Virus genome (UHGV): UHGV-0061378
DNA length: 40,142 nt
Strand: one strand, 5' to 3'
DNA from: a virus
Both the position numbers and the translations under genes were made by a program. The notes beneath the pieces are model-generated. The model was given only the letters and a program-made list of their open reading frames with translations. It did not search any database and was not told the origin of the DNA. This document shows positions 23,402 through 40,142 of this stretch, piece after piece (the stretch's first letter is position 1; every line of letters begins with the position of its first letter).

Positions 23402-23920
23402 CTAAATGGCTAATTGCATGTCAAGGTTTTTAACAGCAACATGCTTAACTTTCTCAACACGTTTACGCATTTTGAAAGCATTTTGCATTGGTTGGTACAA
23501 AACAAATAATGACGCTTTCAGGATGTCGTCAATTTCGTTTCTACAGGTTGCCAGTGAAGGTTTTCTCCATCCCTCGCCACCACGTCCACACATCTTGCGT
23601 GGCTTTGCAGTCGCGTGATAGTAGGATGCAATTGCTCGCTTAGATGAACCATGAGCGTAGTAGCTGAGGAGGATGCCAAAGGCTTTTTTGTCAATGTACA
23701 TGACGGAATCAACGACCTGAGAAATCAACATTCCATCATCATCATTGCACATTGGCCTTGTCATAACTCTTCCCGGCTCTACGCTCTCCATGAACTTCGC
23801 TATTACGCTGCTCATGCGCTTTTCCAGACGACCTGAATAAACCCATGCTCCCCACAGTTCAAGCCAGCCATTCAGCCACTCGTGCTGCTCTTTGGTGAGG
23901 TTTAGTTCTCTTATGCTCAT
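23402..23920 (-). CDS. Late gene antiterminator, Q-like (P22 gp23 type)
   Basis: 172 aa with ...WLNGWLELWGAWVYSGRLEKRMSSVIAKFMES...RPMCNDDDGMLISQVVDS..., resembling remembered P22 gp23; directly upstream of the late leader. Confidence 0.8.
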   Translation of the reverse strand: MSIRELNLTKEQHEWLNGWLELWGAWVYSGRLEKRMSSVIAKFMESVEPGRVMTRPMCNDDDGMLISQVVDSVMYIDKKAFGILLSYYAHGSSKRAIASYYHATAKPRKMCGRGGEGWRKPSLATCRNEIDDILKASLFVLYQPMQNAFKMRKRVEKVKHVAVKNLDMQLAI

Positions 23921-29668: not shown

Positions 29669-29962
29669 TTAAAATTCCATTTGTATTTGATTAGAACGCT
29701 CGGTTGCCGCCGGGCGTTTTTTATTGGTGAGAATCGAAGCAACTTGTCGTGCCAATCGAGCCATGTCGTCGTCAACGACACCCCATTCAAGAACAGCAAG
29801 CAGCATTGAGAACTTTGGAATCCAGTCCCTCTTCCACCTGCTGATCTGCGACTTATCAACTCCCACAGCTTCCGCTGTCTTCTCAGTTCCAAGCATTGCG
29901 ATTTTGTTAAGCAACGCACTCTCGATTCTTAGAGCCTCGTTGCGTTTGTTTGCACGAACCAT
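29669..29962 (-). CDS. cII: Transcriptional activator CII
   Basis: 97 aa MVRANKRNEALRIESALLNKIAMLGTEKTAEAVGVDKSQISRWKRDWIPKFSMLLAVLEWGVVDDDMARLARQVASILTNKKRPAATERSNQIQMEF, near-identical to remembered lambda CII. Confidence 0.93.
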   Translation of the reverse strand: MVRANKRNEALRIESALLNKIAMLGTEKTAEAVGVDKSQISRWKRDWIPKFSMLLAVLEWGVVDDDMARLARQVASILTNKKRPAATERSNQIQMEF

Positions 29963-39203: not shown

Positions 39204-39548
39204 ATGTCAGATTTGGCTATGAAAGTTTTGAAATGGCAATCGACTGGCGATGTTGGCATCAGTAGCGCAACTCTTGCCTCAATCGCATGTGGACTGAAAA
39301 ATAATATCTATGGTCATAGCTTCAGTGCTCCACATGACGCAGCTGATTTCCGGCGATGCGTTGCACTTGTTGAGCAGATTCCAGAAATCAGAGATTCATT
39401 CGACAAGGTTGCAAAGCGCGTTCCGGCATTCAAAGGCATCCTCAACGAATGGGATTCCCTCGTTGCTCTGTTGAAGTCTGAAATGAAGATACACGGAAAC
39501 AAAGCACCAGAGACTTACAGAAGAATCAGCGATCTACGCAAGGACTAA
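39204..39548 (+). CDS. Hypothetical protein
   Basis: 114-aa ORF followed by tandem terminators. Confidence 0.55.
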   Translation: MSDLAMKVLKWQSTGDVGISSATLASIACGLKNNIYGHSFSAPHDAADFRRCVALVEQIPEIRDSFDKVAKRVPAFKGILNEWDSLVALLKSEMKIHGNKAPETYRRISDLRKD

Positions 39549-39551
39549 CCC

Positions 39552-39580
39552 GCCTCACACTCGATGAGGCATTTTCATTT
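39552..39580 (+). terminator. Rho-independent terminator
   Basis: GCCTCA-CACTCGA-TGAGGC followed by ATTTTCATTT. Confidence 0.6.
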
Positions 39581-39605
39581 ATCAAGATATCCAGACCTAC
39601 CATCG

Positions 39606-39628
39606 CCGCATCAATGCGGTTTTTTATT
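39606..39628 (+). terminator. Rho-independent terminator (second of a tandem pair)
   Basis: CCGCA-TCAA-TGCGG followed by TTTTTTATT. Confidence 0.7.
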
Positions 39629-39637
39629 GCCTGATTT

Positions 39638-39653
39638 GCAGGTTCGATTCCCT
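39638..39653 (+). other. tRNA-Arg T-arm-like fragment (TTGCAGGTTCGATTCC)
   Basis: 16-nt match to the T-arm of tRNA-Arg(CCU)/argW as remembered; diverges afterwards and has no acceptor end, so not a functional tRNA. Confidence 0.5.
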
Positions 39654-39670
39654 ATTCGGAGATAGCACTC

Positions 39671-39871
39671 ATGCAACACGAACTACAACCTGATTCACTG
39701 GTTGATTTGAAATTCATCATGGCCGATACTGGCTTTGGTAAAACCTTCATCTATGACCGGATTAAGTCCGGCGACCTGCCAAAAGCCAAAGTTATCCACG
39801 GGCGAGCAAGATGGTTATATCGTGACCATTGTGAATTCAAAAATAAGCTCTTAAGCCGCGCCAATGGGTAA
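39671..39871 (+). CDS. AlpA/Xis-like DNA-binding protein (excisionase/regulator)
   Basis: 66 aa; last gene before the att region, upstream of int on the circular map; resembles AlpA-family proteins. Confidence 0.7.
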   Translation: MQHELQPDSLVDLKFIMADTGFGKTFIYDRIKSGDLPKAKVIHGRARWLYRDHCEFKNKLLSRANG

Positions 39872-39944
39872 AATAGCGGGTAAAATATTTTTCACATCTA
39901 AAAAACACCATTCCAATCAATCCCCTGCCGCGCCAAGTAGATGT

Positions 39945-39959
39945 CTGCAGGGGACACCA
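39945..39959 (+). other. attP core: identity with the 3' end of tRNA-Arg (CTGCAGGGGACACCA)
   Basis: 15-nt match to the argW acceptor 3' end including CCA, as remembered; between alpA/xis and int; flanked by GGGTAAAAA-type arm repeats in both orientations. Confidence 0.65.
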
Positions 39960-40142
39960 TTATTGTGTTTATCCCTAAAACCACGTAAAAACCGTAAATT
40001 ATTAAATTCGCACTAGCAGTGCCGAATAAGGCACACCAGGAACTCGTGGTCTTATTCATTATGAAGTGGTTTTTACCTGTTCTCTTAACCAAGTAATAAA
40101 TGCCTCAATTTTTGGCCACTGCCTGCCCGGTAATGTGGTGAT

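Follow-up and report, generated by a model that had tools for sequence, protein, structure and literature searches.

The DNA analysed here, UHGV virus genome UHGV-0061378, which we refer to in its whole length as the window (40,142 nt, one strand, 5' to 3'), is a P22-like (Lederbergvirus-type) prophage in the integrated orientation that starts within the P' arm of attL and ends just beyond attR. Its recombination module and the leader of its excisionase gene comprise the following features:

50-1207, + strand: intS, the integrase gene, with Arm-DNA-bind_3, Phage_int_M and Phage_integrase domains (compared with K-12 attL/intS)
39605-39626, + strand: intrinsic terminator GCCGCATCAATGCGG followed by a T-run (terminator scan), homologous to the HK022 tL4 region
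39627-39639, + strand: TTGCCTGATTTGC, of the form TTGC-N5-TTGC, annotated in HK620 as the 'cII protein' site of the 'phage integration' promoter and in Sf6 as pI
39636-39651, + strand: the 16-mer TTGCAGGTTCGATTCC, an exact match to nt 46-61 of K-12 argW
39639-39651, + strand: the 13-nt form of the T-arm box, CAGGTTCGATTCC
39642-39651, + strand: the invariant core of the T-arm box, GTTCGATTCC, from cross-genus comparison
39658-39661, + strand: GGAG, the Shine-Dalgarno (SD) sequence of torI (sequence and lineage table)
39671-39871, + strand: torI, encoding a 66-aa recombination directionality factor (RDF, excisionase; ORF list, RefSeq annotation and literature)
39866-39887, + strand: two direct repeats GGGTAAAATA, putative IntS arm-type sites of the P arm (repeat search)
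39921-39954, + strand: inverted repeat TCCCCTGC-N18-GCAGGGGA (arms at 39921-39928 and 39947-39954)
39945-39960, + strand: the attR core CTGCAGGGGACACCAT, the 3' end of argW, corresponding to the published 16-nt KplE1 core, beyond which lies bacterial DNA of the dsdC side

The 66-codon gene at 39671-39871 is named torI in the matching RefSeq genomes of E. coli, and E. coli loci in public genome contigs encode an RDF with 100% identity to its product; we take TorI to be a structurally characterised winged-helix RDF. The initial annotation had called this gene alpA, a name that the RefSeq annotation contradicts and to which Pfam lends no support either, since the torI product (39671-39868) gave zero Pfam hits at E ≤ 0.001. 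TorI is the RDF of the KplE1 (CPS-53) prophage, whose recombination core measures 16 nt (PMC2951348), and the order torI-attP-intS is common to HK620, Sf6, IME10, HZ41 and Kapi1 (PMC2951348; for Kapi1, PMC8787464). In the window the core CTGCAGGGGACACCAT is present in a single copy. The tetranucleotide TAAA occurs in every published IntS arm-type site (PMC2951348); the attribution of the GGGTAAAATA repeats to this class of sites is our own and remains putative.

In the P arm of the window the beginning of the att core is repeated in inverted orientation (TCCCCTGC-N18-GCAGGGGA). This repeat is retained in most TorI-type modules (also in loci L018, L019, L013, L015, L020, L025 and L027) and covaries with the core, reading CCCCTACA/TGTAGGGG in Rouxiella and TCCCTGCA/TGCAGGGA in Edwardsiella, while two Pantoea modules pair TATGGTG with CACCATA instead. 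Its role could lie in DNA, as a dyad for IntS, or in RNA, as a minihelix (8-bp stem with a CACCA tail) that ends torI transcripts. A 50-codon ORF at 39864-40016 (+ strand), a homologue of HK620 hkaB and Sf6 gene 17, overlaps the end of torI and spans the att core; because its 3' part in the prophage comes from bacterial DNA, its product differs between attP and attR.

The leader of torI contains a short piece of the tRNA gene into which the prophage is inserted. The 16-mer TTGCAGGTTCGATTCC, which is found once in the window and on the + strand, is identical at 16 of 16 positions to K-12 argW and runs from the end of the variable region across the 5' strand of the T-stem and the T-loop to the second base of the stem's 3' strand; its last ten bases, GTTCGATTCC, are argW nt 52-61. 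The initial annotation had recognised this exact match to the T-arm, with the correct argW sequence, and had placed it at 39638-39653: the site is real, but its true position is 2 nt further left. Between the end of the 16-mer and the attR core lie 293 nt, in agreement with the earlier estimate of about 290 bp, and 19 nt separate the 16-mer from the ATG of torI. Around the att junction K-12 argW reads ...GGGCTAATTGCAGGTTCGATTCC|TGCAGGGGACACCA (in longer form GTCCTCTTAGTTAAATGGATATAACGAGCCCCTCCTAAGGGCTAATTGCAGGTTCGATTCC|TGCAGGGGACACCA), so that the match ends exactly at the start of the att identity block, save for an overlap of 1 nt. Coincidence had been thought improbable from the outset, and it is ruled out for the exact 16-mer, because even with up to three mismatches allowed only 0.42 hits are expected in the window. 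Across the whole window the 13-mer CAGGTTCGATTCC has neither a second copy nor an inverted partner with fewer than three mismatches. An intact tRNA, for which the initial annotation had proposed to look, is likewise absent: ARAGORN reports no tRNA gene in the window, a search of 39300-40142 against Rfam yields no tRNA fragment at E ≤ 10, and the identity to argW is confined to 16 nt, unlike a tRNA gene or pseudogene. The sequence is that of a tRNA-derived fragment, with 16/16 identity to K-12 argW, in which invariance across lineages is limited to the generic T-loop core GTTCGATTCC.

To the left, the 16-mer abuts a module boundary. The terminator, whose counterpart is labelled 'tL4 terminator' in the HK022 record X51962, is the left edge of a block common to all sampled E. 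coli torI modules: two unrelated families of left flanks (the HK620/Sf6 type and the HK022-ORF114 type) meet there, about 30 nt left of the box, and both continue rightward as terminator-ATTGCCTGAT-box-SD-torI. Similarity of the window to HK022, HK97 and mEp235 stops at 39633, and similarity to 434 and the Stx phages stops at 39624; beyond these points the lambda-type phages go on into their pI/xis region and the window into the 16-mer, torI, attP and intS. In the alignment HK022 continues with TTGCGTGTAATTGC, which we take to be the lambda-type CII box of pI, and then with xis. A mosaic breakpoint with lambda-type modules, of the kind that the initial annotation had suggested looking for, is thus real and lies 3-12 nt left of the 16-mer. 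The first four nucleotides of the 16-mer also serve as the second TTGC of TTGCCTGATTTGC. As a short conserved block at the junction of exchangeable modules, the leader has the character of a lambdoid mosaic 'boundary sequence' (Clark/Casjens), and in the Sf6 GenBank record the boundary sequence bsq2 spans torI and its leader (Casjens et al.). Elsewhere on the + strand, TTGC-N6-TTGC boxes are present at 29940-29953 (TTGCGTTTGTTTGC) and at 23595-23608. The former is presumably identical to the lambda pRE CII site, and these pRE-like and paQ-like boxes are likely to be the phage's real CII/C1-dependent promoters.

The T-arm sequence is conserved at this position far beyond the window. The identical 16-mer occupies the same place before torI in K-12 KplE1, Sf6 and HK620, and among some 80 E. 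coli-type viral contigs the box is present in all 65 distinct upstream variants, a few of them with a single-base change in it. Loci outside E. coli were retrieved solely by similarity of the RDF protein, from phage records, species-representative genomes and viral contigs; of the 119 distinct upstream 75-mers anchored on an RDF gene, 89 contain the exact core GTTCGATT(T)[C/A]C. The box reads CAAGTTCGATTCC in Salmonella phage g341c and its relatives, CCAGGTTCGATTCCTG in Serratia fonticola, CCGGTTCGATTCCTG in a Pantoea sp. and ACAGGTTCGATTCCCTGT in Edwardsiella and Pantoea stewartii; it has GATTTCC in Citrobacter, is duplicated in tandem in Erwinia phage Midgardsormr38 (CAGGTTCGATTCCCGT CAGGTTCGATTCCC), and recurs in several additional lineages. 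Its distance from the RDF start codon is mostly 16-19 nt (25 nt in Serratia), and the block GGAGAT(A/G) is kept together with it. In a blind scan of viral contigs for box-N3-9-GGAG-N5-11-ATG, every hit was a true tRNA or a torI-like RDF gene except for two unrelated ones, of which the first was an integrase gene right behind the 3' end of a tRNA-like sequence and the second another ORF. The tandem boxes of Midgardsormr38 (locus L005, 2485-2514) have a period of 16 bp, as do those of L454, L455 and L458; L451 carries only the core in two copies, and L459, from the same Erwinia-type group, has one copy.

The limits of the conserved element are sharp. In a comparison of seven lineages, identity is 96% over the 13-nt box, 73% over the RDF coding sequence, 52% at third codon positions and 28% over the 30-nt left flanks, which are unrelated. 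The three bases 5' of the core vary (CAG, CAA, TCA, CCT or CCG); the CAG specific to argW is therefore merely semi-conserved and the invariant part is generic T-loop sequence, and since the bases preceding GTTCGATTCC are semi-conserved, the extra TTG that extends the match to 16 nt in E. coli is partly lineage-specific. About 25 of the 30 upstream 75-mers that lack the exact core show no trace of a box, typically with terminator-TTGCCTG fused directly to the SD, and a handful are one to three changes away from the core. Because the box is either intact or cleanly gone, with boundaries that are fixed in unrelated contexts, we regard it as a selected element that is occasionally lost rather than one in neutral decay. 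It is unchanged between RDF clades with just 48% protein identity. Part of this conservation reflects recent exchange, since whole leaders have moved between RDF alleles: L126, with a g341c-type RDF deeply diverged from TorI, and L221, with a TorI-type RDF, share a near-identical terminator-box-SD block, an exchange in keeping with the bsq2 boundary sequence of Sf6. This caveat does not apply to lineages that differ on both flanks of the box. The box is also dispensable, because functional phages and prophages exist without it (Klebsiella phage Chronis, Dryocola, Tatumella, several Pantoea and the approximately 25 clean-loss variants). Other AlpA/Vis-type RDF genes do not share the feature: no T-arm-like box was found before alpA of CP4-57, whose target is ssrA, or near vis of P4.

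Two further sets of loci deserve mention. In Arsenophonus nasoniae (L022), TTGCGTGAGATTTGCGTGTAATTG, which resembles the lambda pI CII box, stands in place of the T-arm box upstream of a torI-like gene, and this arrangement suggests that different leaders have been swapped before one RDF family. Enterobacterial torI modules encoding products 85-92% identical to E. coli TorI are also present in an 'Actinomycetes MAG' (L012, JAEWEJ010000341) and a 'Parachlamydiaceae MAG' (L029, JBKEAL010000209); they lie on short contigs and are most likely bin contamination.

How the box relates to the att sites is apparent from its register. GTTCGATTCC lines up exactly with the left ('B') arm of attB, which reads TTCGATTCC|TGCAGGG in argW, and the consensus of the left ('C') arm of attP across lineages, (A/G)TTCGATGT(A/C)|TGCAGGG, has the same register. 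The conserved extent of the box (TTCGAT plus 3 nt) equals that of the C arm, about 10 bp each, so that the box mimics the B arm in both sequence and register. The B arm is the sole core-type site common to all modules whatever their RDF or C-arm variant, and the box is likewise constant. A second att core is not what the box represents: GATTCC is followed by CTATTCG and not by the overlap TGCAGGG, and a B'-like partner arm is absent. Nor is the box needed for the recombination reaction itself, as excision proceeds in vitro on an attR of 135 bp (PMC3509656), which begins at the 3' end of torI and whose left primer maps to 39848, 197 nt downstream of the box, and as phages such as Chronis are viable without it.

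A tRNA-derived origin of the box is likely. In Serratia and in Pantoea L016, identity to the tRNA extends into the 3' strand of the T-stem (GATTCCTG), and Edwardsiella and P. stewartii show the same extension with one extra C; because identity in these lineages continues past GATTCC, the ancestral piece would have been a full T-arm fragment that probably reached into the core. The same extensions (GATTCCTG, and GATTCC(C)TG in Edwardsiella) led us to drop the idea that the right end of the 16-mer marks an IntS cleavage junction. In the one case in which the host tRNA for an Edwardsiella-type core could be recovered (L253), its T-arm is the same as in E. coli. A donor in which the 5' part of argW is fused to torI was found in none of 5,426 complete E. 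coli genomes, where matches begin exactly at the 16-mer. As for a junction formed through microhomology, lambda pI and argW both read ...TAATTGC, but the window now reads GATTTGC.

Several explanations other than a binding site for recombination proteins can be weighed against these observations. The initial annotation took the 16-mer for an orphan relic of an earlier att site or of illegitimate module exchange, devoid of present function. Its tRNA identity and the neighbouring module boundary are borne out, and an exact argW match that ends at the edge of the att core, a breakpoint 3-12 nt to its left and the GATTCCTG extension in Serratia and Pantoea L016, which fits a once longer tRNA fragment, are all what such a history would leave. 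Neutral debris, however, would not be expected to stay about 96% identical where synonymous sites have fallen to 52% and the flanks are random, to keep the same position and left boundary in at least seven lineages with unrelated surroundings, or to be either intact or deleted and seldom decayed, and the argW-torI fusion that a simple version of this scenario predicts is missing from the E. coli genomes; we therefore consider neutral persistence as a relic improbable. The outcome that the initial annotation had itself named as counting against its reading, a conserved non-tRNA regulatory element, is essentially what the constancy of the box in many genera presents. Less probable still, and indeed very doubtful, is the reading given in the GenBank annotations of HK620 (Clark et al.) and Sf6 (Casjens et al.), by which CII binds TTGCCTGATTTGC to activate a pI promoter and the box is mere promoter spacer. 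The first TTGC does align with the first TTGC of the lambda/HK022 box TTGCGTGTAATTGC, but the repeats at 39627-39639 are spaced by N5 and those of the boxes at 29940 and 23595 by N6, which does not fit a CII promoter; N5 matches are common in the window (eight of them), and most of the other lineages with the box lack the second TTGC (TTCCAGG, GACAGG, TTACAGG). A spacer would hardly be the best-conserved part of a promoter, activation by CII would have the RDF transcribed during lysogenisation, and a scan of the torI strand from 39400 to 40142 found no sigma-70-like promoter.

Two other readings assign the box a role in the control of torI. It could be an operator at which the excisionase autoregulates its own gene, as P4 Vis, 186 Apl and P2 Cox do, by binding the GTTCG of the box in the way it represses intS through attL. 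The five TorI sites on attL (I1-I5) are 8-mers with the core GTTCG, GATCG or GTCCG, and mutation of the core abolishes repression of PintS (PMC2951348). The box holds this GTTCG core, agrees in its AGGTTCGA with K-12 site I4 (TGGTTCGC) at 6 of 8 positions, has the variants CAGTTCGA and CTGTTCGA, and in its Erwinia tandem form resembles an array of TorI sites. Yet GTTCG is followed by A in the box but by C or T in each of the 15 attL sites compared (K-12, Erwinia and Klebsiella), nothing in the TorI sites corresponds to the invariant ATTCC, a single box is unlike the cooperative arrays of attL, and its constancy between RDF clades only 48% identical is not what would be expected of a site read by the RDF, so that we rate this possibility as open to considerable doubt. 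Alternatively, the element could act in RNA, with GAUUCC of the box pairing with GGAGAU of the SD region, or with a T-arm-like hairpin, to dampen translation of TorI from read-through transcripts. UUCC can indeed pair with GGAG, minimum free energy structures pair GGUU with AACC and AUUCC with GGAGAU in 7 of 12 lineages, a real T-arm-like hairpin can form in Serratia, Edwardsiella and P. stewartii, and the short and near-constant distance to the start codon is equally compatible with a role at this level. Folding energies, however, are ordinary (z from -2.2 to +0.7), SD occlusion does not exceed that of shuffled boxes, the TCAGUU and CCUGUU variants break the GGUU:AACC stem without a compensating change, unpaired positions are as invariant as paired ones, and the T-arm stem is gone in most lineages. 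A structured leader would show stability above background and compensatory changes, and an RNA element accordingly appears unlikely to us. The relic, the pI promoter and the RNA hairpin are all weaker rivals than a binding site for recombination proteins.

On the strength of its sequence, register and conservation, the box is probably a regulatory mimic of an attB arm, conserved in the leader of the excisionase gene, that helps to control excision of the prophage. The reading that we favour takes the 16-mer as the form that a conserved cis element in the torI leader of KplE1/HK620/Sf6-type argW modules has in E. coli; the element would act through binding of IntS or TorI, a proposal for which we see the chances as about evenly balanced. 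The B-arm half of attB, which lies immediately left of the crossover region on the T-loop side of argW, would have been copied once, early in the history of the module; selection would since have kept it 16-25 nt (mostly 16-19 nt) before the torI start, with some lineages losing it by clean deletion. The box would then be a DNA site for the module's own recombination proteins, with IntS the favoured candidate, as the same sequence must be recognised in attB, and TorI, with its GTTCG-core sites, the alternative binder. Its occupancy would tie expression of torI, and hence the excision switch, to the level of IntS or TorI. Both the protein binding and the regulatory effect on torI are our inference. 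In the KplE1 system IntS and TorI repress intS through att sites that overlap its promoter (attL/PintS), expression of the RDF is the excision switch, and the promoter of torI has been called 'non-characterized' (PMC2951348); because IntS and TorI already repress intS and RDF expression sets the switch, a site for recombination proteins in the leader of torI would lend itself naturally to feedback. A more specific and quite tentative version of this proposal is that the box is a half-attB decoy, held by the core-binding domain of IntS, which would thereby repress torI; a bridge from the arm-type sites that follow the gene may loop it out. Lone core-type half-sites are usually weak integrase targets.

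If the decoy version were true, it would combine with the repression of intS by TorI into a double-negative toggle between Int and RDF by which the direction of recombination is set, and such a toggle would apply to the large class of tRNA-inserted prophages that carry int and xis at opposite ends. In prophages of this class low-level synthesis of the integrase is constitutive and excision hinges on the production of TorI, and a box of 10-13 bp that stands before torI in at least seven enterobacterial genera and is identical to the arm targeted by the integrase offers a concrete handle on the control of excision. Reading the box in this way would also correct the annotation of HK620 and Sf6, now 20 years old, which places a pI promoter and a CII site here, and would mean that a fragment of the integration target has been recruited as a regulatory site within the mobile element. 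The interest of these points, which concern a function that we infer, is specialist rather than broad.

The closest known system is the argW module of KplE1 (CPS-53), HK620 and Sf6 studied by the Ansaldi laboratory, which has the same genes, the same att core, the same torI-attP-intS order and the 16-mer upstream of torI. The accessible published work on this module describes the IntS, TorI and IHF sites on attL and on the 135-bp attR and leaves the box unmentioned (PMC2951348, PMC3509656), as do the passages found in the Kapi1 paper (PMC8787464); a literature search with the motif strings returned only unrelated tRNA papers. The accessible literature thus does not describe the box, apart from the GenBank annotations of HK620 and Sf6 (pI promoter, cII site and bsq2). 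Set beside the B arm of attB, as used by tRNA-targeting tyrosine recombinases, the box shows full identity to the 10-13 bp of argW adjoining the crossover and has the same register as the C arm of attP; it differs in being a lone half-site, 293 nt from the real core, without an overlap region or partner arm, and outside the attR that suffices for excision. With the TorI operators I1-I5, which lie on attL and repress PintS, it shares the GTTCG core and a place before a recombination gene, whereas its 3' half has ATTCC where those sites have a pyrimidine, it usually occurs in one copy, and its conservation is far stronger than theirs. In lambda and HK022 the pI promoter with its CII box, located upstream of xis or within it, occupies the same map position, after a tL4-type terminator and before the RDF gene, and shares a partial TTGC repeat; in the window, by contrast, the spacing is N5 rather than N6, the TTGC repeats are not conserved together with the box, and the RDF gene would lie within the transcript. 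In the K-12 RefSeq record (L001, 10585-10599), the 15-nt attR core of KplE1 is annotated as the pseudogene pawZ (pseudo-argW), and the 16-nt T-arm copy carries no annotation. Orphan 3' fragments of the pawZ type, found at the borders of islands and prophages, are likewise short exact pieces of the target tRNA within a prophage; these fragments are duplicated att cores left by integration, whereas the box comes from just outside the core, is not made by integration, and appears to be under selection.
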